This document shows positions 2,059 to 24,892 of a stretch of DNA of 25,192 nt, piece by piece. The stretch's first letter is position 1. Each line of letters begins with the position of its first letter. Position numbers and translations under genes: made by a program. Origin of the DNA: an uncultured bacterium (GTDB lineage: Bacteria; CSSED10-310; CAZUFC01); the NCBI GenBank assembly GCA_964619725.1, contig CAZUFC010000114.1, positions 1-25,192 on the forward strand, in the 5' to 3' direction. The notes beneath the pieces were generated by a model. That model worked only from the letters and a program-made list of their open reading frames with translations. It ran no database searches and was not told where the DNA came from.

Positions 2059-2286
2059 ATGGCGGAAGATAATAAAACCATCGGAAAAATCAAAAAAAGA
2101 GACGATGTCGAAATTTACGGGACCCTCTCGAAATACAGAAATGAATATTACGTCGATTTTCGGGAATACGTTCAGACCGAAAAATACTCCGGTCCCACCA
2201 AAAAAGGCATTCGTTTTCATATCGAAAACTGGGATTCGTTCAAAAAACTCGTCGATTCCATCGATAACGAAATAAAAGAATTGTAA
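2059..2286 (+). CDS. PC4/p15 (YdbC-like) single-stranded DNA-binding protein
   Basis: YVDFREY...GPTKKGI motif typical of the PC4 family; strong AAAGGAGG RBS; TTGACA at 1971-1976 upstream. Confidence 0.85.
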   Translation: MAEDNKTIGKIKKRDDVEIYGTLSKYRNEYYVDFREYVQTEKYSGPTKKGIRFHIENWDSFKKLVDSIDNEIKEL

Positions 2287-2462
2287 TGCCAAATCCGGCT
2301 CACTGCAATTCATTGTTTCTAAATGTTTTTATTGAATTTTCAATCCTTTGGGAACCCTCTTCGACACGGTTTTTCAAAGCCGAAATCGACGAAAATTCTA
2401 TGTTTTCAAGGCGTAATTTCAAAAAAAAATTGAAAAATATTGAAAAACTGCCGATTTTTGCC

Positions 2463-2490
2463 TTGACATTAAAATCATGGATTTTATAAT
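2463..2490 (+). promoter_or_regulatory. sigma70 promoter of hup
   Basis: TTGACA (2463-2468), 16 nt spacer, TATAAT (2485-2490). Confidence 0.8.
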
Positions 2491-2537
2491 ACCAGTCAAT
2501 CATAGGTTGTAACCTAAACTCTCAAAGGAGGCACCCA

Positions 2538-2810
2538 GTGACTAAAAAAGAACTCGTTGCAAAAATAGCTGCTGATGCCGAAATTACCAAAGTGAAGGCA
2601 GAGAAAGCATTGAATGCTACCCTGGACGGAATCAAAGGCGCATTGGTCGGAGGAGACAAAGTAAGTCTCGTAGGTTTCGGTACTTTTATGGTATCAAAGA
2701 GAAGCGCCCGCAAAGGCCGCAATCCGAAAACCGGCAAAACGATCAATATTCCCGCTTCAAAGGTTCCGAAATTCAAACCCGGCAAAGACTTGAGAGAATC
2801 AGTCAAGTAG
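2538..2810 (+). CDS. hup: DNA-binding protein HU
   Basis: MTKKELV...GFGTF...GRNPKTG...PKFKPGK; GTG start after AAAGGAGG. Confidence 0.97.
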   Translation: MTKKELVAKIAADAEITKVKAEKALNATLDGIKGALVGGDKVSLVGFGTFMVSKRSARKGRNPKTGKTINIPASKVPKFKPGKDLRESVK

Positions 2811-3511: not shown

Positions 3512-4297
3512 CTATTTACGAGCGTTTTTTGCGGGGAACGTTTTTCTTTTAACGGCAATCGAATTCGCACCGGCGAAATCGTTTGCCAGGGGAGTAATAA
3601 TAGTGTCGTGAGGAATAGTAATTTCTTTTTTATTATTCTTCACGATCTTTTTCAGATCATCTTCCGTTAAAACTTTTCCCTGGAAATCGGGAAGGGTTTT
3701 AACTTTGAACGATCCTGACGAAGCCGGGACATTTTTTGAAAAAGCATCAGGATTTTTGATTTCGGAGGATTTGTTTACTGCAGCCAGGACCTGATCGACG
3801 ACGGCGCTGATGACGTTTTTCAGCACGGTCTGTTCTTTGGAAGAATGGTTCATGATTTTCTCTCCTTCGACAGCCATAATTTTATCCACGCGGCGCTGAT
3901 GACGGCCGCCCTCAAACAGCGATTCCAGGAATATCTTCACGATTTCCAAAGCGGCTCCCTTGCCCACAATCATGCTGCCCATGCATAACATATTGGCGTT
4001 ATTATGTTCTCTTGCATTTCTGGCGCTGAAATGATCGTTGCATACAGCCGCTCTAATCCCTCGCATTTTGTTGGCTGCCATTGCGCTGCCCACTCCCGCG
4101 CCGTCAACCATTATGCCGAATTCAGCCCGGCCTTCCAGGACGGCGCCGGCCGCTTTAACGCAAAAATCAGGATAATCGACCGACTCCGTTGAAAAAGTTC
4201 CTACATCCAGAACCTGATGCCCCTGCTTTTTCAACTCTGACTTGATCGTTTCCTTTAATTCAAATCCGCCGTGATCGCTTCCAATCGCTATGTTCAT
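3512..4297 (-). CDS. rpiB: RpiB/LacA/LacB-family sugar-phosphate isomerase with ~115 aa C-terminal extension (encapsulation-peptide-like helix plus small BMC-associated domain)
   Basis: IAIGSDHGG, SVDYPD, AANK.RGIRAA, AREHNNAN and FEGGRHQRRV motifs; DGAGVG replaces CGTGIG. Confidence 0.92.
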   Translation of the reverse strand: MNIAIGSDHGGFELKETIKSELKKQGHQVLDVGTFSTESVDYPDFCVKAAGAVLEGRAEFGIMVDGAGVGSAMAANKMRGIRAAVCNDHFSARNAREHNNANMLCMGSMIVGKGAALEIVKIFLESLFEGGRHQRRVDKIMAVEGEKIMNHSSKEQTVLKNVISAVVDQVLAAVNKSSEIKNPDAFSKNVPASSGSFKVKTLPDFQGKVLTEDDLKKIVKNNKKEITIPHDTIITPLANDFAGANSIAVKRKTFPAKNARK

Positions 4298-5241
4298 CCT
4301 TCCGCTCCCAATCTCTCGTTTGTATTATTCCAAGCGGAAATTTCCTCAATAATGCCGCCTGCCTTAACAGGGTCCAGTCCTGCCCCGCCGACGAGGAAGC
4401 CGTCAATATCCGCTTCCCTGAGGAATTCCGAAGCGTTCTCAGGCGAAACGCTGCCCCCGTATAATACCGGGATCGTCGAACCTCTGCCGGCGCGGAACCG
4501 ACGGCTCGCCAACATTCTTATATGATCATTCATCGCCGCCGCATCAAGAGGCTCGGCCGCCTGACCGGTCCCTATCGCCCATATCGGCTCATACGCTATC
4601 ATTAACGATCCTGAACGATTCGCCTTCAATAAACCGTCAAGCCCCGCATTGACAGAATCCGACACCCGCTTGCCGCTCCGCTGATTCTCCCGGTCGATCA
4701 GGGATTCCCCCACACATAATATTACTTCTAATCCGTTTTCCAGAGCCGTCTGCACCTTCTCTGCAATTAACTCGTCATCCTCCGTGAAAAATTTCCTTCT
4801 CTCGGAATGCCCGATAATAACCGTCCTTATTCCGACGGAATTCAACATCAACGCCGAAACCTCCCCCGTATACGAGCCCGATTCCTTCTCATGAACATTC
4901 TGAGCGCCTATCTCCACAGGCAGTCCCCTGAAAACCTCCTGCGCCGATTCCAAAAACGGAAATGCTGGACAAACAATCAGCCGGAAAGACAATCCATCTT
5001 CAATCACTCCACGGATACGCTCAGCAAAATCCACTAATTCCCGCTTACCATGATTCATCTTCCAATTCAAAACTAATTGAAACTCGCTTTGCCCCTTATC
5101 CTTTGATCTGAACTCAACACCCAGCCTTAACGCCGCTTCGCGCGCCTCATCCGTTACGATCTCGCCGCCCGACAGCGCTATCCGACCGTTTCCCCTGCTC
5201 GCCTCCACGATGTCCTGAGAAGTAATGAATTTTCGTCTCAT
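4294..5241 (-). CDS. tpiA: Triosephosphate isomerase with ~45 aa N-terminal accessory domain
   Basis: NWKMN, IIGHSERR, AYEPIWAIGTG, YGGSV and DGFLVGGA motifs. ATG at 5241 is preceded by GGGGAG and is preferred to TTG at 5262. The stop overlaps the rpiB start (ATGA). Confidence 0.92.
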   Translation of the reverse strand: MRRKFITSQDIVEASRGNGRIALSGGEIVTDEAREAALRLGVEFRSKDKGQSEFQLVLNWKMNHGKRELVDFAERIRGVIEDGLSFRLIVCPAFPFLESAQEVFRGLPVEIGAQNVHEKESGSYTGEVSALMLNSVGIRTVIIGHSERRKFFTEDDELIAEKVQTALENGLEVILCVGESLIDRENQRSGKRVSDSVNAGLDGLLKANRSGSLMIAYEPIWAIGTGQAAEPLDAAAMNDHIRMLASRRFRAGRGSTIPVLYGGSVSPENASEFLREADIDGFLVGGAGLDPVKAGGIIEEISAWNNTNERLGAEG

Positions 5242-5270
5242 ACGGCTCCCCGGATCAAACAATCCTCGCT

Positions 5271-5299: not shown

Positions 5300-5583
5300 G
5301 CCTGGCGACTCGATTCATAATCGCTCATCGCCGCCTTAATTTGCATCCCCCTTCATTCAGTCGGCAGCCCTGCTTTTAACGAAATTTTGTCCATAAACCG
5401 CAGCGACTGTTCAGCATTAAATTTTGAACTGAGATTTGAGTTTGTGGACAGGCGCTGACGAAGGATAAGTTTTTATCGATTAAAGCAGCGCTGCTCATCA
5501 GACGCTCTCCCAAAAAAACGAATGCTGCCGTGGCCTGTAAATTAAAAAAGAGAGCGTTTTTCAAGGCTACTCTGAAATAATAC

Positions 5584-5613
5584 TTGACAAAACGTCAGAA
5601 GAACTCTTAAAAT
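5584..5613 (+). promoter_or_regulatory. Probable sigma70 promoter of mraZ-ftsZ-like
   Basis: TTGACA (5584-5589), 18 nt spacer, TAAAAT (5608-5613). Confidence 0.55.
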
Positions 5614-5673
5614 ATATATGATGATTTTCTTTGTTTTTCATTGAATATCATCAAATAGTAGAGTTTTTCTATT

Positions 5674-6108
5674 ATGGAAAGAATACTCGTCACAGGCGTT
5701 TATAAATCGAAAACGGACAGCCAGGGAAGAATTACGTTGCCTCGGATTTTCAGACCGCAAATACTGGAAAAATGCGAAAACACTTTGTTTTTGTCGGCTC
5801 ATTCCGAATTTCTGATCGCTCTGCCCCCGTATGAACTGGAACAGGCGCTTTCACGAATCGGATTAATGGAGTATAATGATATGGAACAGCGGTCCGAAAG
5901 ACGTCGTTTGACGGCAGCTCTTCACATGGTTGCGGTTGACGGACAGGGTCGGATAAAAATTCCTGATTCTATTCTTTGCAGACCCCTATTTGAGGAGGGA
6001 GCGGTTTTCGTCGGCACAGGCCATGATTTTGAAATTTGGGATGAAGGGGAATATGAGGAACGTCGAAGAGCGGAGAATCGGAATTCTGTCCGGAAAAAAA
6101 AGGAATAA
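5674..6108 (+). CDS. mraZ: MraZ-family transcriptional regulator (two SpoVT/AbrB repeats)
   Basis: Two D-x-x-G-R-I-x-[LI]-P repeats (TDSQGRITLP, VDGQGRIKIP) and C-terminal VGTGHDFEIW; 144 aa. Confidence 0.85.
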   Translation: MERILVTGVYKSKTDSQGRITLPRIFRPQILEKCENTLFLSAHSEFLIALPPYELEQALSRIGLMEYNDMEQRSERRRLTAALHMVAVDGQGRIKIPDSILCRPLFEEGAVFVGTGHDFEIWDEGEYEERRRAENRNSVRKKKE

Positions 6109-6125: not shown

Positions 6126-7148
6126 GTGAAGCCGTGGGATAAAAAGGATAAGGAATTTTTCATTGAAAAGCAGTCGCGTGTCGGGACATTGATATTGGGT
6201 ATTGGAAAGGGCGGAGTGGAATTATTGGACCGAATGCCCGGCAATGGAGTGCAAGCGGATTTACATTTATACGGAGTGCGCACTTCGACGGAAGGAGCTG
6301 CAGAAGGAAATAGATTTCCAATAATTCAAATCGGTAAGCGGAAATTTCCATTGGGTTGCGAGGGCGATCCGTTGAAAGGCCGAAAAGCTCTCATCGAAAA
6401 TTACGAAGAAATCCGCAAACTGTTGGAACCTTATCATCTAATTTTTTTAACCGGATTTTTAGGCCGAGGCACGTGTTCTGGAGCGGCTCCGTTAATAGCG
6501 GAAATAGCGGACCGGGAACTGGGCAAATTTACAATAGGACTTTTCGTAAAGCCGGATGGTGGAGCAAGCAAAATTGAGCAGTATCAGGCGAGGGATGCGG
6601 AAAAAGAACTGAATCGACATTTAAACGTATTGATTTCTGCTGAGCGAAGTAAAGAAACGGAGGGAGTTTTCGATCTGTTGCGTGAAACGTCTGAGTCTAT
6701 CTGGCATTTTAATAAAACTTTGGCTGAACCGGGCGTGGTGAATCTCGATTTATCGGATATCGTCAACGGACTTCCTGAGAAGTGTGAGGGATGTTTATTG
6801 ACCGTATCGTCTGATGACGATGAGATTGACGCGGGCAAGATTTGCCGTCGTTTCGACGGTCATCCGTTCGGCAAAAGTTTTAGTTGGGATTCTGCCGATC
6901 ATCTTTACGTGCATGTTTCGGGCAATGCCAGAATCGGGATGCACGATACGGCAAGAATATTGAATCACCTGCGGTCAAGAATATCGAGCAAAGCGAAAAT
7001 CTTTTGGGGATTAAGCATTCGTCCTCAAGAGAAAGCGTCCTTGACGATTTCGGTATTGGCGGCGACGGAACGGCTATCCGCAAAAAGGGTGGAAAAATCA
7101 AGCCGGCCGGCTGCGGGCTCCATCAGCAGCAATAGAACTTCTTTTTAA
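6126..7148 (+). CDS. Divergent FtsZ/tubulin-family protein (FtsZ-like paralog)
   Basis: Colinear with FtsZ: LGIGKGG (GVGGGG loop), GCEGDPLKG (GAGANPEVG), GRGTCSGAAP (GGGTGTGAAP), GVVNLDLSD (T7 loop), C-domain AKIFWG...TISVLA. Confidence 0.8.
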   Translation: MKPWDKKDKEFFIEKQSRVGTLILGIGKGGVELLDRMPGNGVQADLHLYGVRTSTEGAAEGNRFPIIQIGKRKFPLGCEGDPLKGRKALIENYEEIRKLLEPYHLIFLTGFLGRGTCSGAAPLIAEIADRELGKFTIGLFVKPDGGASKIEQYQARDAEKELNRHLNVLISAERSKETEGVFDLLRETSESIWHFNKTLAEPGVVNLDLSDIVNGLPEKCEGCLLTVSSDDDEIDAGKICRRFDGHPFGKSFSWDSADHLYVHVSGNARIGMHDTARILNHLRSRISSKAKIFWGLSIRPQEKASLTISVLAATERLSAKRVEKSSRPAAGSISSNRTSF

Positions 7149-9673: not shown

Positions 9674-10528
9674 TCAATGTAATTTCAAGGAATGGATATA
9701 ACTCCTCAGGGTTTCTCCAATTTCGGGAGAGCGTAAAGCTGTTTCGAGCGTAGCGGACAGATACTCCATCCGATCATCGAATCTAACGAAATCGTCTTCA
9801 AATTCAAGCGCGTATACCGTCCCTGCCGCAAGCGCGGCTCTGACGACATCCGACAGCCCCCATTCCCTGTCTGTTATCGTTTCTTTTAATGATTCGAATA
9901 AGCTTGAATCAAAAACCAACCTTCCTTTCAGCGTCTTCTCGTTTTCTCCCGCTTTCTCTTTGTCCGAAACATCCCGAACCCGATAAATGCCATCTCCGGC
10001 ATTTTCAACGGCCAGGCAACCATAAGCCGGTCGTTGCTTCTCATCGAAAGGACTCACCGCAACAACCGCCCCGCCCGTCTTCTCGCGAATCTCCGCTAAT
10101 CTTTGTAATGCAGAAACCTCACCTGTATATATTTCTTCCGGCATCAACACACCGAAATTTTCACCCCCGATAAGACCTTCGGCCTCCATTAACGCATCTT
10201 TCAGGTCGGATGTTCCCCTGCTTCGAATAAACGCTATTCGGATCATATCCGTTATTTCTTTCAACATTTCCCGGAACCTGACTTTTCCGGCTCCTTCCAG
10301 ATATTTGTCCAACTCCTGAGAAAACGCAAAATACTCCGGAACGATTCGTTGTCTTTCTCCCAGTATCATAATCGCAATTTCAATACCGGCTCTTGAGGCT
10401 TCTTCAATAATGTAATGAATTGCGGGTCTGTCTACCAGAGGAAGCATTTCTCTCGGCATCGCGTTCGACGCCGGCATAAATTCCAGCGCTTCCTTCATTG
10501 CCGGAATAACGGCTTTCGTCATCTGCAT
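9674..10528 (-). CDS. GalU/GalF-like nucleotidyltransferase-fold protein with degenerate active site
   Basis: KAVIPA...P.EMLPLVDRPAIHYIIEEASRAGIE and C-terminal EYLSATLETAL match GalU, but AGLGTRF is replaced by MKEALEF; GAGGAG RBS. Confidence 0.85.
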   Translation of the reverse strand: MQMTKAVIPAMKEALEFMPASNAMPREMLPLVDRPAIHYIIEEASRAGIEIAIMILGERQRIVPEYFAFSQELDKYLEGAGKVRFREMLKEITDMIRIAFIRSRGTSDLKDALMEAEGLIGGENFGVLMPEEIYTGEVSALQRLAEIREKTGGAVVAVSPFDEKQRPAYGCLAVENAGDGIYRVRDVSDKEKAGENEKTLKGRLVFDSSLFESLKETITDREWGLSDVVRAALAAGTVYALEFEDDFVRFDDRMEYLSATLETALRSPEIGETLRSYIHSLKLH

Positions 10529-11060
10529 TTATACTCTCCTCGCTTTTCTTCTTCTCGGTTCCCTTTGGCTCAGCATCAGAGTTCTCGTCATCGCTAATTT
10601 TCTCCCTCCTGAATCTTATTATTACCTTTTTCATTATAAAATATGCAGCGACGCTGACAACCGCTCCCAATAGCGTGCACCCCAGCAGAAACGGCAAAAA
10701 AAGACTCCAGAAACCCTCCCAGCTCACCAAAGTTTCCTTTAACTCGTTTAAACTTCTCGGCATAAGCGTACTTTCGTCCGCTCCGTATCCTAAAAGAAAT
10801 CGACCCGTCGCAAAAGCCGCCGCATAAAAAAAAGGCGCTATCCAGGGAGGATTCAGCATAGTCCCGACTAAAGCTGAAAACGCCTGCAACCGCAGTAAAG
10901 GGATGAGGATCATCGTTGTTGCCGTGTGAGTCCCGTAGAAAGGATTCAGACTTATGAACATTCCTATAGCAAAGCTTCTCGCCAGATATGACGGACTTCC
11001 CTTCAGCTTGACGATATCTATTAATGCCTTCTTTAGGCGAGAGCGAAGTCCCCCCTTCAT
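10404..11060 (-). CDS. DUF2062-family membrane protein
   Basis: SPSYLARSFAIGMFISLNPFYGTHT...NPPW...PFLLG pattern with 3-4 TM segments; the charged tail overlaps the next gene by 125 nt. Confidence 0.75.
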   Translation of the reverse strand: MKGGLRSRLKKALIDIVKLKGSPSYLARSFAIGMFISLNPFYGTHTATTMILIPLLRLQAFSALVGTMLNPPWIAPFFYAAAFATGRFLLGYGADESTLMPRSLNELKETLVSWEGFWSLFLPFLLGCTLLGAVVSVAAYFIMKKVIIRFRREKISDDENSDAEPKGTEKKKSEESINADDESRYSGNEGSAGIYAGVERDAERNASSGRQTRNSLHY

Positions 11061-18173: not shown

Positions 18174-18923
18174 ATGGCTAAAAAAACAAAAAGCAAAAAA
18201 ATTCAAGGATTTACGGTGCTGGAACTTCTTTTGGTGGCATCAATCATTGGGGTTCTGGCGACAATTTCATATGCGGCCTGGTATAGTTATTATCCGATAT
18301 TCCGTTTGGACCAGGCGGCTTCTCAGATCGCGGCGGATTTAAATTGGGCGGCCTATCAGGCGGCGAGTCGTCAGAACAACTGGATGGCTTTTATAATTTA
18401 TCCCAGGGCTAGCGCTCCCGGCGTTCAATCAGTCGATCTGAAGCTATACGATCAATCGCCTTATGAAAACGCCTCCTATTGGGTTCCGGTGAACAGCTAT
18501 CTCTTGATCAATGATGACGGGTGGCTGGGAACGGCTCAAGACGGAATAAGGCGTTATAAGCTGGGATCGCCGGATTTTTTCTGGCCGAACAGGAATTCGG
18601 GCCAATTCGATCTCAATGAGCTTTCCCGTGGTCCTATTCGTTTAGGCAAGGGATTGCGTTACATAAGGGGAGCGGTGACTTCGCCGGGCGGTCCATATTA
18701 TAATCCTCAACTGATAATTTTTTATCCGAATCGGACGGTGTCATGCAAAGATTTCAGAGCTCATCCCCATATGAGACCGAGAACGAGCGGAGTATTTTGG
18801 CTGGGGGATCAGTATTATGTTTCGGGCGACGCAAGCGAAGACAACAAAGTGCACTTACGTGAAATTAATATTCGGAACAATGCGAAAGTAACGGTATCGA
18901 GGTCGCCTTCGTTCGTCCCCTGA
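18174..18923 (+). CDS. Prepilin-type protein, FimT/FimU/GspH-like minor pilin
   Basis: Basic leader, G|FTVLELL cleavage motif with E5, RLDQAASQIAADL...A helix; first gene of the operon. Confidence 0.8.
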   Translation: MAKKTKSKKIQGFTVLELLLVASIIGVLATISYAAWYSYYPIFRLDQAASQIAADLNWAAYQAASRQNNWMAFIIYPRASAPGVQSVDLKLYDQSPYENASYWVPVNSYLLINDDGWLGTAQDGIRRYKLGSPDFFWPNRNSGQFDLNELSRGPIRLGKGLRYIRGAVTSPGGPYYNPQLIIFYPNRTVSCKDFRAHPHMRPRTSGVFWLGDQYYVSGDASEDNKVHLREINIRNNAKVTVSRSPSFVP

Positions 18924-18963
18924 TGAGGAGATTGAAGAGTATATCATTCTGAAGGAGTTATTT

Positions 18964-19419
18964 ATGAAATTAAAATATTTTAATAAAAGACAGGAAGGAT
19001 TCAGTCTTCTTGAGTTACTATTTGCGCTAACCATAATGGCGACGGGGATGCTGGCTTTAGCCACGGCTTTTCCTTCCAGTTATTTGAGGGTTGAGGAGGC
19101 CGACAGCCGTGAGAATGCGGCTCGACTGGCGCAAACCGTTTTAGAAACGGCCAAAACCGTGAGGTTCGACAAGTTGAATGCTGCGTTTGAGGCGGAATAT
19201 ACCGATGATGTCGACGTGAACCAGGATGATGATGCCCTGGGCGGCTCTGATTATGAGTATCGCATCGTTGAAATTTTAGATGATCAGCCCTGCGTTGGGA
19301 TGAAAACGGTGAGAGTGCGGGTACGGTGGCTGAGGTTGCCGCTGACTGATCAGAACAATGATACGGTGGCTGATGCTTCTGAAACTGAACTGGTATTATT
19401 TTTTGATGAAATATTTTAG
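18964..19419 (+). CDS. Prepilin-type protein, PilV/GspI-like minor pilin
   Basis: G|FSLLELLFALTIMATGMLAL, A.RLAQ..LE, KTVRVRVRW. Confidence 0.85.
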   Translation: MKLKYFNKRQEGFSLLELLFALTIMATGMLALATAFPSSYLRVEEADSRENAARLAQTVLETAKTVRFDKLNAAFEAEYTDDVDVNQDDDALGGSDYEYRIVEILDDQPCVGMKTVRVRVRWLRLPLTDQNNDTVADASETELVLFFDEIF

Positions 19420-19460
19420 AAAAGGCATTAGATTTTCAAATTTAAAGGGAGGACGTTAAA

Positions 19461-22400
19461 TTGAGAAAGCATATAAAAAGCCTGAAAAGCAGAAAGGGAT
19501 TTACTCTGATCGAGTTATTGGTATCAATAATGGTGTTTTCATTAGTTATGTCCATTATTTATTCGTTGTTTCTTACGACGAAAAAGGATGTAAGGACAGA
19601 GGTGAATCTGACGGAGGCTCGCGAAAATGCCCGAATAGCATTGGATGCATTGAAACGAGACATCGCCCGCATGGGACTGAATGTAGATCGCGAGCCGGGA
19701 GGCGCTGCGGCTTATGAACAGCCGATGTTTGTTTACGGCGATCCCTATCAGATCATCTTCAATGCTGATATTGACAACGATTTAGCGCAATATCCGACTT
19801 ATTCGGAATCTGACGTCCTGGGGCCGGTAGACCCCCGGGCGAGCGCTCCGCCGCGGCTTAACGTGCTGCAAAACAGTTCGCATGAGCCGGGAAGCGTTAT
19901 AGCGGCGTCTTATCCTCAATTTTGGAATCAGATTTGGGGCGAAGCGAGGGGAAATGAGATGCAAGGCGCTGAACTGCTGCGTTATTCGCTGGACTTCGTA
20001 GGCAACGGGACTATAGCAGGACTTAATCAGAACAATGAGGATTCGGTATTCATTCATACGGGTTTGAACAGAACGGTCAATCCTTATGATTTTTATCTAG
20101 TTCGAGAAATTTGGGGATCGCGTATAGTGAATGGAGCGCGTCAAAATTATTACAACGGTTCGGAATTCAGTCCGCCGCGCCCCCATATCGTCGCCACGAA
20201 TATAAGGGCTTTCGACTACAATTTTTCTGACTTTTACAGGTTTCCCAACGGCGAAATTCCCTATCCGATATTCACCTACTGGGGGCATTTCGAGGACGAT
20301 CCGCGAGATGATGACGATCCTCCCGAAGAGCCTGATGAAGTAGTTGAAAAATTGGACCTTTGGGGTGATCTTGATGACAGCGGCGATTTGAATTCAACTG
20401 AAATAATGCAGATGCTGACGAACGGCGGACCTTATTCCCGGGCCTTGCAGTATGCGTCTGAGGTGAATCCTTTGACCGGCGAATGGAATGACCGAAACGG
20501 CAATGGAGTGAAGGATTACAACATCGACAACGTGTTGCGTAGAGTGGTCGTTTCCATAACGACGGAGACAGGCAGCCGTGATCTGCAGAATCCGAATCAG
20601 AAATATGTACAAAGCGGAGAAGATTATTGGTTTCACGAAGTCAAGATGGCTGAATCGGTTGCGCTGAGGAACCTGGAGCTGATCAAGACGGAAGGCAGCA
20701 TTCAGCCTCTTCCCACCAGTTCTCCCATGCCCACTTCGTTTGACTCCACCGGAACTCCAGTACCCACTGCGCACACAGAAACACCTACTCCCACTCCGAC
20801 TCTCACACCCTCTCCTCCAGGCATAACGCCGACATTCACCCCTGACACCGCTCCTACATTCCCGGATTACTTGAATCTTTCTGAAGTTATCGTAGGCAGC
20901 GGGAATTTGACGAAAGGTCCTGACAAGGTTGAGGCGTTTTTTGTTTGCGGATACGGTGTTGGGTTATGTCCTGACGCATTTGAAGACGGACGGTGGCAGC
21001 TCCCGGGCCGAGTGCTTCTTTCCGGCGAACCGCAAGGCGAACCGGTCAATTCTCCAGCCATATCCGGAGAAATCGTCAAAATTATAACCGGCGATCTGAA
21101 AGGCGACTACGACTATCGTTATGATGCCGTCGTCGTTACTGATGCTTCGGACCCCGGTTCTCCGTTCGACGAAGTCTATAACTTATATTTGTTTTCAAAT
21201 GAGGAACCCGATAATGAAAGCGGGGGACTTCGATTTGTTTGCAATCATACTGAGACCTTCAGGCGCGCAGCGTTCATTGAATCCAGGCTTCCCGATCCCT
21301 CGGACCCTTCCTCTACCGTTCCTGCAAAAATCGTCTCAGTCGCTCTGGGCGACGTCCTTCCCGAAAAAACCCACTTTGATCCTTACAACGAGATCATCAT
21401 TGGAATGAATCCCGTTAATCCTCTTGATTACCGCTGCTCAATCATTACGATAGACCTTGCCACAATGATCGGCGACCCTGCCGGTTTCGTAATACAGAGA
21501 ATAGCGGAAGACAACAGCTTCATTATTGAAGGGCACAGGCTGGTTGATTTCAAAGTAGGTCCTTACTATCCCTCTTCTATGCATGACTATCGCCATGATC
21601 TTATGGTAGCATTAAGACCCGATCCTTTCGCACCACCGGCGAATCCCAGCGACGTCAGATTCTATTACGCGGCAACTCCTTTGCCTATTACTCCGACCCC
21701 CGGTCCCCAACCTCATAACAATTTCGTGGAACTCGAAAACGCCACGATTAAGCTGTCCGAACTTTTGAATTATGAGACGGGAGATTACATCACGGCCATT
21801 GATACCGGCTCGCTTTTTACCTATGACATCATCCACGATTTCGTCGTCGGCACTACTAAAAACATTCACTTTTTAAGAAATTTCAACCTTGACTCAACTC
21901 CGCCCCTGGAAAATCATAACCAGGCCGTCAGTTCAAGAGTCGTCGAACTTAAAATCGCACGTTTCTTTTTCCCGATCATGGACCCCATCTATGATGTTTT
22001 TGCGCTTACTGCAGAAACCAACGCCGACAAGTCCAACTTCTTTCAGTTCTTCGGGACAAGCGGAATGATTACTCTCGACAATTCCATTTTCCTTTCCAAC
22101 TATCCCGCTACGATTGAAATCGGCGAAATGAACCTGGGCTCCGGGGAATTCCCTTATGATCTTGTGGTCGGTCACTCCAATCCGGTACCCGGCTCCGGTT
22201 GTCAGTTCAATCCCGGGTATCCTCGCTACAAAGCCAGCATCTTTCTCGGTTCTCAACCTGAACCTTTACATTACATTATAACCAACCTGGAACATGATTA
22301 TCTGAAATGTCCCTTTTACGGACCTATCCGCGACATCGCCATCGCTCAACAGTTGTATCGTTCTCAGCATCCGGATCGCGGTTCTGACGGATCGAATGCC

Positions 22401-22523
22401 GAAGGAGGCAAGAACAAAAAAGGATCGCTTCAAGGAACAAAATCCGGTGATGATAGCTCATCAAGCAAACGACGCGGCGACGTCAAGGAAGACAAAATTC
22501 AGAGACCCATTGTTGTTCGATAG
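19461..22523 (+). CDS. Giant PilW/GspJ-like minor pilin (1020 aa) with Pro/Thr linker and C-terminal FG-GAP-like beta-propeller
   Basis: G|FTLIELLVS, ENARIALDALKRDIARMG (PilW-type helix), RRVVVSIT...VALRN end of the pilin domain, PT-rich linker, repeated blades; GGAGG RBS with TTG start. Confidence 0.85.
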   Translation: MRKHIKSLKSRKGFTLIELLVSIMVFSLVMSIIYSLFLTTKKDVRTEVNLTEARENARIALDALKRDIARMGLNVDREPGGAAAYEQPMFVYGDPYQIIFNADIDNDLAQYPTYSESDVLGPVDPRASAPPRLNVLQNSSHEPGSVIAASYPQFWNQIWGEARGNEMQGAELLRYSLDFVGNGTIAGLNQNNEDSVFIHTGLNRTVNPYDFYLVREIWGSRIVNGARQNYYNGSEFSPPRPHIVATNIRAFDYNFSDFYRFPNGEIPYPIFTYWGHFEDDPRDDDDPPEEPDEVVEKLDLWGDLDDSGDLNSTEIMQMLTNGGPYSRALQYASEVNPLTGEWNDRNGNGVKDYNIDNVLRRVVVSITTETGSRDLQNPNQKYVQSGEDYWFHEVKMAESVALRNLELIKTEGSIQPLPTSSPMPTSFDSTGTPVPTAHTETPTPTPTLTPSPPGITPTFTPDTAPTFPDYLNLSEVIVGSGNLTKGPDKVEAFFVCGYGVGLCPDAFEDGRWQLPGRVLLSGEPQGEPVNSPAISGEIVKIITGDLKGDYDYRYDAVVVTDASDPGSPFDEVYNLYLFSNEEPDNESGGLRFVCNHTETFRRAAFIESRLPDPSDPSSTVPAKIVSVALGDVLPEKTHFDPYNEIIIGMNPVNPLDYRCSIITIDLATMIGDPAGFVIQRIAEDNSFIIEGHRLVDFKVGPYYPSSMHDYRHDLMVALRPDPFAPPANPSDVRFYYAATPLPITPTPGPQPHNNFVELENATIKLSELLNYETGDYITAIDTGSLFTYDIIHDFVVGTTKNIHFLRNFNLDSTPPLENHNQAVSSRVVELKIARFFFPIMDPIYDVFALTAETNADKSNFFQFFGTSGMITLDNSIFLSNYPATIEIGEMNLGSGEFPYDLVVGHSNPVPGSGCQFNPGYPRYKASIFLGSQPEPLHYIITNLEHDYLKCPFYGPIRDIAIAQQLYRSQHPDRGSDGSNAEGGKNKKGSLQGTKSGDDSSSSKRRGDVKEDKIQRPIVVR

Positions 22524-22540
22524 ATGAAGCAGGTGAGGCA

Positions 22541-24892
22541 ATGATGATACGGAAGAAATTAAAGCATATTTTTCAAAAGTTGAAACATGGTGATCCGGGG
22601 AAGCGAAACAGCGGTTTTGCACTGGTCGCTATTCTCCTGATATTGGTTTTAATGACTGCCCTCGGTACAGGCTATATTATGAGTACAAGCCTGGAAACTC
22701 AGATGGCCAGAACTGAACATGATGCTCTCGTGGCGGCTTACGTCTCCGAATCAGGACTGGCATACGCCATAAATCGAATCAGAAGAGCCAACTGGCTGAA
22801 AGACATAGATGCTGACCACGGGCCGGGAGGAACCTATAAACAGGCGCTTGATCATGTCGGACATTACACTCACGAGCCGAATCATCCTGATTTTCCTGAA
22901 AACTCTCATTTACCTGAAAACATTATGGATTTCGGCTTCAACGACGGGCAATGCACTTCTGAAGACGGCTGTATGCACGAGCTGCCTGTGAACACTTTGT
23001 TTCAGGTTTGGGCAGAGCCGGCCAATCCCGGAGAGGAGAACTTTTTGGACGCTCCTATTAAAGCGTTATATTCTATCGGTTTTTGCGACATGATTTCGCA
23101 CACGACCAGAGTTCTTTTTCGCCCGTTGCCTGATTTTCTTGATTTCGCCGTTGCGGCAGATCGTTATATTTCTTTGCATGCTGACGCAGCCGTAAATCAA
23201 ACGATCGTCGGAGGGGTATGGAGCAATGGTGAAATAAGTCAGTCATACGGCGTAAAGATAATGACGGACAAAGACGGACCCGACGATTTTGAAGGAAAAA
23301 ATCCGATCACAGGCGTCAATGACGATCAATATGTAGCCTCAGTAGGTCACGCCAGGCTTGGAGGTTTTGTTGATGGAGACGTTTATGCAAGTTCCGCGGA
23401 TAATCATCAGCCTATTTTCAGGGAGGCCGATCCCTATGAAGAAAACACGGACCGAACTGAAATAGGTCACGTAACCGGATGGCTTTATCTGAGACCTTCC
23501 ATAGAACCTAAGGAGGGGCCGAGATACAGCGGATATAAAGACAATTGGGAAGACATTTATGAATATGCCGAGGTTTGGGGTCCAGGATTCACGGAGCGAA
23601 CCAACCCGATTTGTTATTGCGCTTCTCTGATCGACCACAAACGGGACCGTTCCTATTTTGAATACCAGGATATTTTCACATTCGAAGATTGTATGGATAT
23701 CGGCAGAACTCCTACCATAACTCCTTCAGCGCATACGAATACCCATACTCCTACTTTTACTCCAACTCCTATGATTACCGGAACGCCTCCACCGACCAGA
23801 ACGTTCACCAACACCCCTACGTCAACCCCGACGTTCATCTGCAACAACCCGGCCTGGCTTGATGATGGACATTGGTCACGTTATTGCGGAAGGGCGGAAG
23901 AAGATTGTAACGTCGCCGCAGCTTTTTGCCCGGGATACTTTATTCAGCACCCCTACAAGACATGGCCGAATCCGCTGCTTTGCAATTTCGACGAAGGTAT
24001 CGACAATACGCATTATGACATTCAACCGGCGGACGGCGAATACCTGGAGAATCCTCCTGAAGGCAACTGCCTTACGAAAAAGCACATCGTCGGCTATTTC
24101 AACTTTGATTACTACAAACAACTGGCCGGGACTTATGTAGATACCGGTTATCCTGACGGAATGGTTTTCAATGATTGGGGCGAATTCAACGACTATATCG
24201 AAAGCGCGGTCAACGGTAGTCCCCAATACGCGCGAATCGTAAAATACCACGGATGGGAATGGCGGCTCATTCTGGGCAATGAACTGCAAGAAGTTTACCC
24301 GGTTTTCTACATTGATGATCCCAGTGTGCCCGATTCTGACGAACCCTACGGCTGGATGAACTTGAAGCCCATTAACGATCAGTTGGACGGCGAAATCGAA
24401 CGCGTCTATATTCACGGCACGATCGTTACGACCGGCAGCTTAGACATTAGAGACATCGACAACCGATGGAGGCGGCCTGGAGCCAGGTATCGCACCGTCA
24501 GGGCAGATGTCCGCGATCCCACAGACGTCAGTGTTTGGGATGGTTGTAAACGGTTAATCATTGATTGTCAAAATTATGAACGTCCCGCCCTGGCGGCTAA
24601 AGGCGATATCTGGATTACACGCAGAAATTACTTCACCGATATCTTCGGCCTTGTTTATGCCGAAGGAAAAATTAAAATCTCCAATGATAACGTTGCCGGA
24701 CGCGTATGGGTCGGCAACCCCAATGATATGGTCATTTCCGGGGGCGCTGTTGTGGGAAGAGAATTGGAATTTAACGGTTTCTACTACATCGAATACGATC
24801 CTGAAGTCAAAAATCTTCTCGGCTGTATAGACCTCGATCCGAGACAAATTGAAATTGTCTCCATTGAAAAAAGCTTTTATTACAACTTCTGA
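22541..24892 (+). CDS. Large PilX/GspK-like minor pilin (783 aa) with internal Pro/Thr linker and Cys-rich segments
   Basis: G|FALVAILLILVLMTALG lacking E5, A.Y.SESGLAYA (PilX N-terminal motif), C-terminal GLVYAEGKIKIS...GAVVG...IEYDP. Confidence 0.82.
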   Translation: MMIRKKLKHIFQKLKHGDPGKRNSGFALVAILLILVLMTALGTGYIMSTSLETQMARTEHDALVAAYVSESGLAYAINRIRRANWLKDIDADHGPGGTYKQALDHVGHYTHEPNHPDFPENSHLPENIMDFGFNDGQCTSEDGCMHELPVNTLFQVWAEPANPGEENFLDAPIKALYSIGFCDMISHTTRVLFRPLPDFLDFAVAADRYISLHADAAVNQTIVGGVWSNGEISQSYGVKIMTDKDGPDDFEGKNPITGVNDDQYVASVGHARLGGFVDGDVYASSADNHQPIFREADPYEENTDRTEIGHVTGWLYLRPSIEPKEGPRYSGYKDNWEDIYEYAEVWGPGFTERTNPICYCASLIDHKRDRSYFEYQDIFTFEDCMDIGRTPTITPSAHTNTHTPTFTPTPMITGTPPPTRTFTNTPTSTPTFICNNPAWLDDGHWSRYCGRAEEDCNVAAAFCPGYFIQHPYKTWPNPLLCNFDEGIDNTHYDIQPADGEYLENPPEGNCLTKKHIVGYFNFDYYKQLAGTYVDTGYPDGMVFNDWGEFNDYIESAVNGSPQYARIVKYHGWEWRLILGNELQEVYPVFYIDDPSVPDSDEPYGWMNLKPINDQLDGEIERVYIHGTIVTTGSLDIRDIDNRWRRPGARYRTVRADVRDPTDVSVWDGCKRLIIDCQNYERPALAAKGDIWITRRNYFTDIFGLVYAEGKIKISNDNVAGRVWVGNPNDMVISGGAVVGRELEFNGFYYIEYDPEVKNLLGCIDLDPRQIEIVSIEKSFYYNF

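Follow-up and report, generated by a model that had tools for sequence, protein, structure and literature searches.

Gene content of the locus

Contig CAZUFC010000114.1 (positions 1 to 25,192; assembly GCA_964619725.1) from an uncultured bacterium of the CSSED10-310 lineage, hereafter referred to as the window, contains a pair of minus-strand genes, tpiA and rpiB, encoding a triosephosphate isomerase (TPI) and a ribose-5-phosphate isomerase B (RpiB), respectively. This work concerns a module of about 45 amino acids (aa) carried by both enzymes, at the N-terminus of TPI and at the C-terminus of RpiB, and its relation to the cargo of bacterial microcompartments (BMC), in particular of the sugar-phosphate-utilisation (SPU) type. 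The limits of both genes, their overlap and the limits of the modules had been proposed by an initial annotation made from the sequence alone, and they agreed with the open reading frame (ORF) list, the sequence and Pfam (Table 1). Since the bases of the tpiA stop codon and the rpiB start codon are shared as ATGA, a single operon with translational coupling is suggested. Outside the catalytic domains covered by Pfam lie ~55 residues at the start of TPI and ~115 at the end of RpiB. The ATG at 5241, with a GGGGAG motif 4 nt upstream, was taken as the tpiA start; an alternative in-frame TTG at 5262, by which 7 aa would be added, was judged less likely.

Homology of the two extensions

The two extensions had been equated in the initial annotation by a pairwise alignment, which was insufficient alone because no alignment between the two window copies was returned by BLASTP at E ≤ 100 and because their Smith-Waterman score of 29, equalled in 83 of 5000 shuffles, represents a marginal direct similarity. 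The equation itself was upheld by profile methods. A module hidden Markov model (HMM) was built from 15 RpiB C-terminal stretches of other organisms, with no window sequence included, and was run on 272 proteins. It matched both the window RpiB (aa 203-250, 1.2e-16) and the window TPI (aa 2-45, 9e-4), and among 119 other TPIs it matched 2, P0036 (2e-9) and P0019 (8e-7), which are TPIs of 303-304 aa with the canonical TPLAR core at the N-terminus. The comparison of profiles by hhalign was decisive: the N-termini of three TPIs (window, P0019 and P0036) scored 98.9% (E 2.6e-17) against 50 RpiB modules, from which the window RpiB copy had been excluded, and the window TPI N-terminus alone scored 96.7% (E 3.5e-10) against the RpiB modules. 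In the TP.A core, Thr and Ala were invariant across 29 aligned module copies; the window TPI copy has TD in the core motif, where TP is found in most of the copies. On these profiles the TPI and RpiB extensions are judged to be homologous. The opposite explanation, that they are unrelated tails made alike by chance or low complexity, would account for the blank BLASTP and for the frequency with which shuffles reached the direct score; it has next to no probability in view of the profile-profile score, the recovery of both copies, with only two other TPIs, by a window-free HMM and the invariance of the Thr and Ala.

A Wallbacteria TPI (P0085, 298 aa, with an N-terminal extension) was considered by eye as the bearer of a truncated module and was rejected, the HMM being blind to it even unfiltered. 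Word-indexed searches with the extensions alone returned only the window's own proteins, and no further match to the module HMM was obtained over the remaining window ORFs.

Fold and relatives of the module

The structure prediction that had been proposed in the initial annotation was carried out with AlphaFold2 (AF2). From the 29-copy alignment, the module alone was predicted as a compact alpha/beta unit of the order beta-alpha-beta-beta-alpha-beta, with a mean predicted local distance difference test score (pLDDT) of 90, and within the full-length RpiB model it reached a pLDDT of 90-95. No solved homologue was found, as Foldseek with the module model gave 0 matches to the Protein Data Bank (PDB) at E ≤ 0.001; PDB sequence searches with the module alone and with the 29-copy profile stayed at chance level (best 0.034; uL23 and KRas). 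Pfam lacks a dedicated model for the module and returned nothing for the window module copies, even at E ≤ 10.

Parts of several protein families were matched by the module copies. The C-terminus of eut_hyp (NCBIfam TIGR02536) was matched by 20 of the 29 copies, the C-terminus of PduM by 14/29 (NF011957) and 11/29 (TIGR04493), and positions 1-49 of the EutQ profile (NF012001) by 9/29, with 2.1e-5 as the best value. Positions 112-152 of 153 of Pfam PDU_like (PF15953) were matched by 2 of 10 copies. For the window RpiB module, eut_hyp was the best-scoring family (7.7e-10, positions 163-206 of 207) and PduM gave 0.046. Because these matches fall far below the curated full-family cut-offs (38.7 against 152.6 bits for eut_hyp, 13.6 against 50 for PduM and 14 against 193 for EutQ), they indicate a shared module and not family membership. 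The initial annotation had described a microcompartment-type module and named the EutT N-terminus as an instance of it. The description stands and is extended to eut_hyp, PduM and EutQ, and the named instance was weak, with matches at E about 0.008 to EutT positions 12-45 of 267 in 2/29 copies. The matched families (eut_hyp, PduM, EutQ and EutT) are all microcompartment accessory proteins, and on the evidence of the profiles we equate the module with the EutQ N-terminus and with the PduM and eut_hyp C-termini.

A sub-threshold lead from the ESM Atlas (0.86) pointed to a cluster with PF15953 on 12% of its members. The second half of the module (TPLAR...GI) gave sub-threshold matches to PF02817 (E3_binding) in 4 of 10 copies, namely those of the loci L036, L057, L050 and L001, of which the best (0.0016, 19 bits against a cut-off of 23.7) is taken as a lead only. 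PF02817 is the peripheral-subunit-binding domain, a small domain that serves for docking in 2-oxoacid dehydrogenase cores. The open-access literature searched (eut_hyp, PDU_like and EutQ/PduM homology) yielded no account of the shared module, and in the portion of PMC12108088 available PduM is reported to be without sequence homology to proteins outside Pdu compartments.

Active-site type and C-terminal appendage of RpiB

The window RpiB has PDB matches to RpiB enzymes down to 5e-44. In the alignment its D65 stands opposite the catalytic Cys65 of PDB 3he8 (C. thermocellum enzyme), and both D65 and H98 are invariant among the C-terminal-type RpiBs, i.e., those with the module at the C-terminus. 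According to the relevant sections of PMC11585597, the catalytic Cys (E. coli Cys66) is Asp in all SPU ribose-5-phosphate isomerases (RPIs), and the Chloroflexi SPU RPI that was assayed had negligible ribose-5-phosphate isomerase activity and complexes with the DeoC aldolase (DERA). By these residues the window RpiB is assigned as an SPU-type variant in which Asp replaces the catalytic Cys.

A HMMER search of 1.84 billion representatives yielded 149 other RpiBs. The module was present in 58 of the 85 Asp-type representatives, in 0/58 of the Cys-type and in 0/6 of the Gly-type. The Cys-type representatives had a median length of 153 aa, and 79/85 of the Asp-type were at least 190 aa long. The module was more often N- than C-terminal among the collected RpiBs. 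At least 20 residues precede it in 19 of 41 N-terminal-type module RpiBs, 18 of these 19 stretches being encapsulation-peptide-like by eye, and fewer than 20 residues precede it in the other 22/41. The RpiB-domain tree was poorly supported and left a single or a repeated origin of the C-terminal arrangement unsettled.

In the full-length AF2 model the appendage of the window RpiB is ordered as helix, linker and module, the helix spanning aa 131-177 as a continuation of the last helix of the isomerase domain. The segment of aa ~153-177 was not singled out by a hydrophobic-moment scan; by eye, a hydrophobic helix repeat was found in most of 16 C-terminal-type RpiBs, and the helix resembles the N-terminal helices of the N-terminal-type module RpiBs. 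An extension made of a helix of more than 10 aa and a linker, which homologues from outside compartments lack, fits the definition of an encapsulation peptide (EP) in the legend of Supplemental Table S2 of PMC11585597, but it is C-terminal here. Of this extension the initial annotation had recognised the module, and it had overlooked the helix and linker (aa ~153-205) as well as the change from Cys to Asp.

TPI and its relatives

The stretches NWKMN, GHSERR and AYEPIWAIGTG, which we take to be catalytic stretches of TPI, were read from the sequence of the window enzyme, and it appears from them to be catalytically intact. No amphipathic helix precedes its module, and ~10 residues separate the module from the barrel. 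A TIM-domain tree was constructed from 120 TPIs by using FastTree with midpoint rooting (top hits only, P0005 left out). The window TPI was placed as sister to a Wallbacteria TPI (support 0.93) within a 7-member clade (support 0.97) holding all three module-TPIs. P0005 is a 297-aa TPI with a ~45-residue internal duplication in the TIM barrel, which is probably an assembly artefact.

The initial annotation had called a TPI fused to this module unusual. As far as PMC11585597 is cited here, TPI belongs to the enzymes listed for SPU loci: it is prominent in SPU1 and SPU4, and it bears an N-terminal EP in SPU4 and an N-terminal tail in SPU7. TPI is also reported from Myxococcota and Hodarchaeales type II compartments in the cited part of PMC12747264. 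Compartment-associated TPI is therefore already known, and what holds of the claim is the nature of the extension as a folded module, which is undescribed in the cited portions of these papers.

Table 1. Features of the tpiA-rpiB pair in the window and stand-alone helix+module proteins in related loci
Feature	Position	Strand	Remarks
tpiA	4294..5241	minus	315 aa; Pfam TIM PF00121 1.9e-75; NCBIfam tim TIGR00419 above cut-off
TPI N-terminal ~45-aa module	about 5098..5241	minus	aa 1-48; HMM match aa 2-45
TPI TIM-barrel catalytic domain	4345..5076	minus	Pfam PF00121, residues 63-306 of the 322-aa reading
ATGA overlap, tpiA stop TGA / rpiB start ATG	4294..4297	minus	from the sequence
rpiB	3512..4297	minus	261 aa; Pfam LacAB_rpiB PF02502 3.3e-57
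RpiB/LacAB isomerase domain	3863..4297	minus	aa 1-145; AF2 pLDDT >90 over aa 1-140
RpiB Asp65 codon GAC	4103-4105	minus	position of the catalytic Cys in RpiB enzymes; His98 kept
RpiB encapsulation-peptide-like helix, TVLKNVISAVVDQVLAAV core	3767..3841	minus	aa ~153-177; AF2 pLDDT 66-83 over aa 150-180
RpiB disordered linker, poorly conserved	3683..3766	minus	aa 178-205; pLDDT <50 at aa 180-200; gappy alignment columns
RpiB C-terminal ~45-aa module, IITPLAND core	3542..3682	minus	aa 206-252; HMM 1.2e-16
Stand-alone helix+module protein	L003 10446-10871		141 aa; directly after bare RpiB
Stand-alone helix+module protein	L073 2201-2584		directly before RpiB
Stand-alone helix+module proteins	L079 15249-15581; L072 3066-3428		110-120 aa; Anaerolineales SPU loci

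Association of related loci with shell genes

Genome loci (80) were gathered with the RpiB alignment, with flanks of up to 10 kb. Shell genes were found in the flanks of 25 of the 42 Asp-type rpiB loci and of 0/38 Cys-type loci (Fisher 7e-10, a value that overstates independence because the loci are phylogenetically related); the module was likewise present in 0/38 of the Cys-type loci. Pfam confirmed 58/58 of the BMC-P and 38/47 of the BMC-H candidates. When only shell ORFs passing Pfam at 1e-5 were counted, 23/42 Asp-type loci remained, L010 and L022 being dropped as they rest solely on unconfirmed candidates.

Three loci are of particular relevance to the window. In L002 (Candidatus Wallbacteria GWC2_49_35), BMC-H, rpiB, BMC-P and BMC-P genes lie in this order at a contig end, and the RpiB is 45% identical to that of the window over residues 1-254, with the same C-terminal appendage; a setting of shell genes and DeoC, as expected of an SPU RPI gene, is found for this relative and not for the window rpiB. 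L003, from the metagenome-assembled genome (MAG) of an uncultured bacterium, is a complete SPU locus, in which a module-TPI, a phosphotransacylase (PTAC), BMC-H, BMC-P, an aldehyde dehydrogenase, a PduS-like protein, a tandem BMC protein, RpiB, a stand-alone helix+module protein, two BMC-P genes and a flavoprotein-DeoC fusion are encoded; the SPU-locus setting is found for this related module-TPI and not for the window tpiA. The most syntenic relative is L001 (CSSED10-310 MAG), whose RpiB is 48% identical and in which rpiB, HU (66% identity) and PC4-like (59% identity) genes follow the window order. From these nearest relatives, the window probably derives from a sparsely sampled lineage close to the candidate phyla Wallbacteria and CSSED10-310.

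Other arrangements were observed. In L008, L013, L020 and L044 a deoC gene with an N-terminal extension of ~80-100 residues lies just downstream of a module-bearing Asp-type rpiB (~9.8-10.7 kb), and in L016 (9740-11316) a module-bearing Asp-type RpiB is fused to DeoC; none of these loci, L016 included, has a shell gene within 10 kb, and their surroundings are otherwise unrelated. The stand-alone proteins of L079 and L072 match EutQ profile positions 4-100 (7.1e-5 for L079) and resemble the shell/cargo-linking N-terminal region of EutQ without the cupin domain. In L061 a 256-aa relative of eut_hyp was found (positions 52-206, 1.1e-13).

Interpretation of the gene pair as probable satellite cargo

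The explanation that we favour, and hold to be probable, is that tpiA-rpiB is a cargo operon of an SPU-type microcompartment whose shell and core genes lie outside this 25-kb contig. The initial annotation had proposed cargo encoded away from the shell operon, and this is partly supported: strongly by homology and by context in relatives, and for this genome satellite-cargo status is putative. Its statement that SPU microcompartments encode RpiB together with DeoC is borne out by the part of PMC8217296 consulted. The shell and core genes (BMC-H/P/T, DeoC and aldehyde dehydrogenase) would be placed elsewhere in the genome. The module may dock its carrier enzyme to the shell, as suggested by analogy with EutQ, since the corresponding EutQ region binds the shell: in the available text of PMC12487888, EutQ stays with the cargo when residues 9-41 are deleted and with the shell when residues 62-99 are deleted, and because of these localisations 9-41 is assigned to shell association and 62-99 to binding of the cargo EP. 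In the portion of PMC12108088 cited, PduM is targeted to the core by an EP at residues 1-23, and its body is required to connect core and shell. The RpiB helix would then tie into the cargo core in the fashion of an encapsulation peptide, so that RpiB, probably with DeoC, might serve as an enzyme or scaffold plus a tether of core and shell. The module-only TPI could be held at the shell or inside it and interconvert the glyceraldehyde-3-phosphate released by DeoC with dihydroxyacetone phosphate.

Several points weigh against this reading, besides the relatedness of the loci mentioned above. As the initial annotation had already stated for shell genes, no PF00936 or PF03319 protein was found among the 21 main window ORFs by Pfam and shell HMMs, and DeoC (PF01791), aldehyde dehydrogenase and PTAC were absent from the 25-kb window as well. 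The neighbours of tpiA-rpiB are housekeeping genes (eno, HU, mraZ, ftsZ-like, lepB, grpE, lpxC and pilins). In L001, tpiA is missing upstream, and the 6.3 kb available contain no shell gene. In 0/80 of the related rpiB loci is tpiA next to rpiB, so that the operon is a variant of its own. The window TPI module matched EutQ profile positions 2-51 at E 0.02-0.03, which is weak alone, and EutQ profile positions 1-49 correspond approximately to the residues 9-41 that bind the shell. Finally, 15 of the 23 module-bearing Asp-type loci had no shell gene in their flanks, as compared with 2/19 of the module-less ones, and six of the 15 (L008, L013, L015, L018, L020 and L044) had full 10-kb flanks on both sides. 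Satellite placement is thus common for module-bearing Asp-type RpiB; equally, a form so often away from shells may be used free of a shell.

These same flanks bear on the alternative that there is no microcompartment and that the two enzymes are a cytosolic pair descended from SPU cargo, with TPI serving glycolysis beside eno and with the appendages as relics or as means of shell-free clustering. The housekeeping neighbourhood without shell genes would suit it, as would the 15/23 loci, among which are the rpiB-deoC pairs and the fusion in L016. It is nevertheless regarded as quite improbable. Good conservation and a confidently predicted fold of the module in the window proteins speak against a relic in decay. 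In many genomes, shell loci go together with the module and with Asp-type RpiB; satellite loci in microcompartment genomes are documented in the cited part of PMC8217296; and from flanks of at most 10 kb a genome cannot be shown to lack shell genes.

The main rival concerns the function of the module, which could be a domain for enzyme-to-enzyme assembly, with targeting left to the amphipathic helix, so that TPI would enter the core paired to the module or the helix of RpiB or of a stand-alone helix+module adaptor. It is consistent with the TPI fusions, which have the module and no helix and whose partner with helix and module is encoded in the same operon or locus: RpiB in the window, and the 141-aa stand-alone protein beside the bare RpiB in L003. 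The loci L073, L072, L079 and L061 likewise encode stand-alone helix+module proteins, SPU RPI complexes with DERA in the cited part of PMC11585597, and the sub-threshold PF02817 matches in the second half of the module fall to a docking domain. This rival is still considered rather unlikely, since the EutQ region matched by the module is the one assigned to shell association, with EP/cargo binding placed at 62-99 (PMC12487888, as far as cited), and since the 22/41 N-terminal-type RpiBs with fewer than 20 residues ahead of the module indicate that the module is often present without a helix. A complex prediction with RpiB aa 146-261 and TPI aa 1-56 gave a score of 0.00, which was counted neither way.

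A wider proposal is offered tentatively, with more doubt than confidence. The module might be a second, general targeting device besides helical encapsulation peptides, i.e., a portable shell-docking (core-shell tether) domain of EutQ, PduM, eut_hyp and SPU cargo, by which, in this lineage, central-metabolism genes situated among housekeeping genes would be recruited either to the surface of a compartment encoded elsewhere or to that compartment itself. RpiB with helix and module would in that case be mainly a tether or scaffold and not an isomerase.

Other features of the window

Besides the pair, 19 other ORFs were considered, including those for enolase, a PC4-like protein, HU, MraZ, an FtsZ-like protein, signal peptidase, a tetratricopeptide-repeat (TPR) protein, a nucleotidyl transferase, DUF2062, a zinc ribbon protein, GrpE, LpxC, DUF4390, a two-component pair and pseudopilins. 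The eno gene lies three kilobases from tpiA. A bacterial PC4 (transcriptional coactivator p15)-like ORF and the HU gene (2059-2810, plus strand) adjoin rpiB, with their counterpart in L001 at 5380-6011. The mraZ gene (5674-6108, plus strand) is followed not by the usual rsmH but by a divergent FtsZ/tubulin-like ORF (6126-7148), which matched Pfam Tubulin at 1.4e-13 and FtsZ_C at 1.9e-4, the latter below the cut-off.

The nucleotidyl-transferase ORF (9674-10528, minus strand) and the DUF2062 ORF (10404-11060, minus strand) overlap by 125 nt when read from their first start codons; the downstream gene probably starts further in. A four-gene cluster at 18174-24892 (plus strand) has prepilin N-methylation motifs in three genes and a PilX N-terminal match in one; two of the encoded proteins, of 1020 and 783 aa, are unusually large and have Pro/Thr-rich linkers. 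The contig edge carries two minus-strand tRNA genes, at 1-72 (cut at the end) and at 109-180 (tRNA-Met CAT), respectively.

Comparison with known systems

Few microcompartment types are as widespread as SPU compartments. To our knowledge, the loading of their cargo is known only from predicted helices. A conserved folded module has now been located within the supposed unstructured linker of SPU RPIs and tied to the EutQ shell-association region and to PduM. If it is a shell-docking domain, it would point to a common mechanism of core-shell tethering across the Eut, Pdu and SPU systems, and it could be used as a sequence marker for satellite-encoded cargo such as tpiA-rpiB and as a small tag for the loading of engineered shells. 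Taken alone, the window offers something more modest, namely two known SPU enzymes in a new architecture. TPI and RPI had been described as SPU components before; the novelty lies in recognising the module, in finding it at the C-terminus of RpiB and in the tpiA-rpiB operon.

The window RpiB shares with the SPU RPI of Chloroflexi GWB2_54_36 (PMC11585597, in the part cited) the LacAB_rpiB fold, the change from Cys to Asp with the His kept, and an extension of putatively amphipathic helix and linker that plain RpiB lacks, and relatives of the window RpiB lie in loci with BMC-H/P, DeoC and aldehyde dehydrogenase. It differs in that the appendage is C-terminal, whereas Supplemental Table S2 of that paper has only N-terminal EPs for RPI (SPU2, 3 and 6), and in that rpiB lies outside any shell locus in the 25-kb window. 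As for the TPI (pfam00121) of SPU loci, the window enzyme is likewise a TIM enzyme with an N-terminal extension and it groups with the module-TPI of L003; its extension, however, is an alpha/beta module instead of a lone amphipathic helix, and its gene stands beside rpiB in a housekeeping region.

Among the accessory proteins, eut_hyp (TIGR02536) is the best family for the RpiB module, although only its C-terminal ~45 positions are common to both. The N-terminal region of Salmonella EutQ, a protein that links shell and cargo (PMC12487888, in the available text), is related through the 9/29 module copies that match its profile, and the stand-alone protein of L079 has the module, linker and helices in EutQ order over positions 4-100; the window proteins differ from EutQ by having no cupin/acetate-kinase domain, and the order of the RpiB appendage is reversed relative to the EutQ N-terminal region. 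PduM (PF15953; TIGR04493, NF011957) is a small structural protein and not an appendage of an enzyme, yet its targeting helix and its module occupy opposite ends of the protein, the module lying within the last ~40 profile positions, and loss of PduM partly separates core and shell according to the cited portion of PMC12108088; the RpiB appendage has the same layout.

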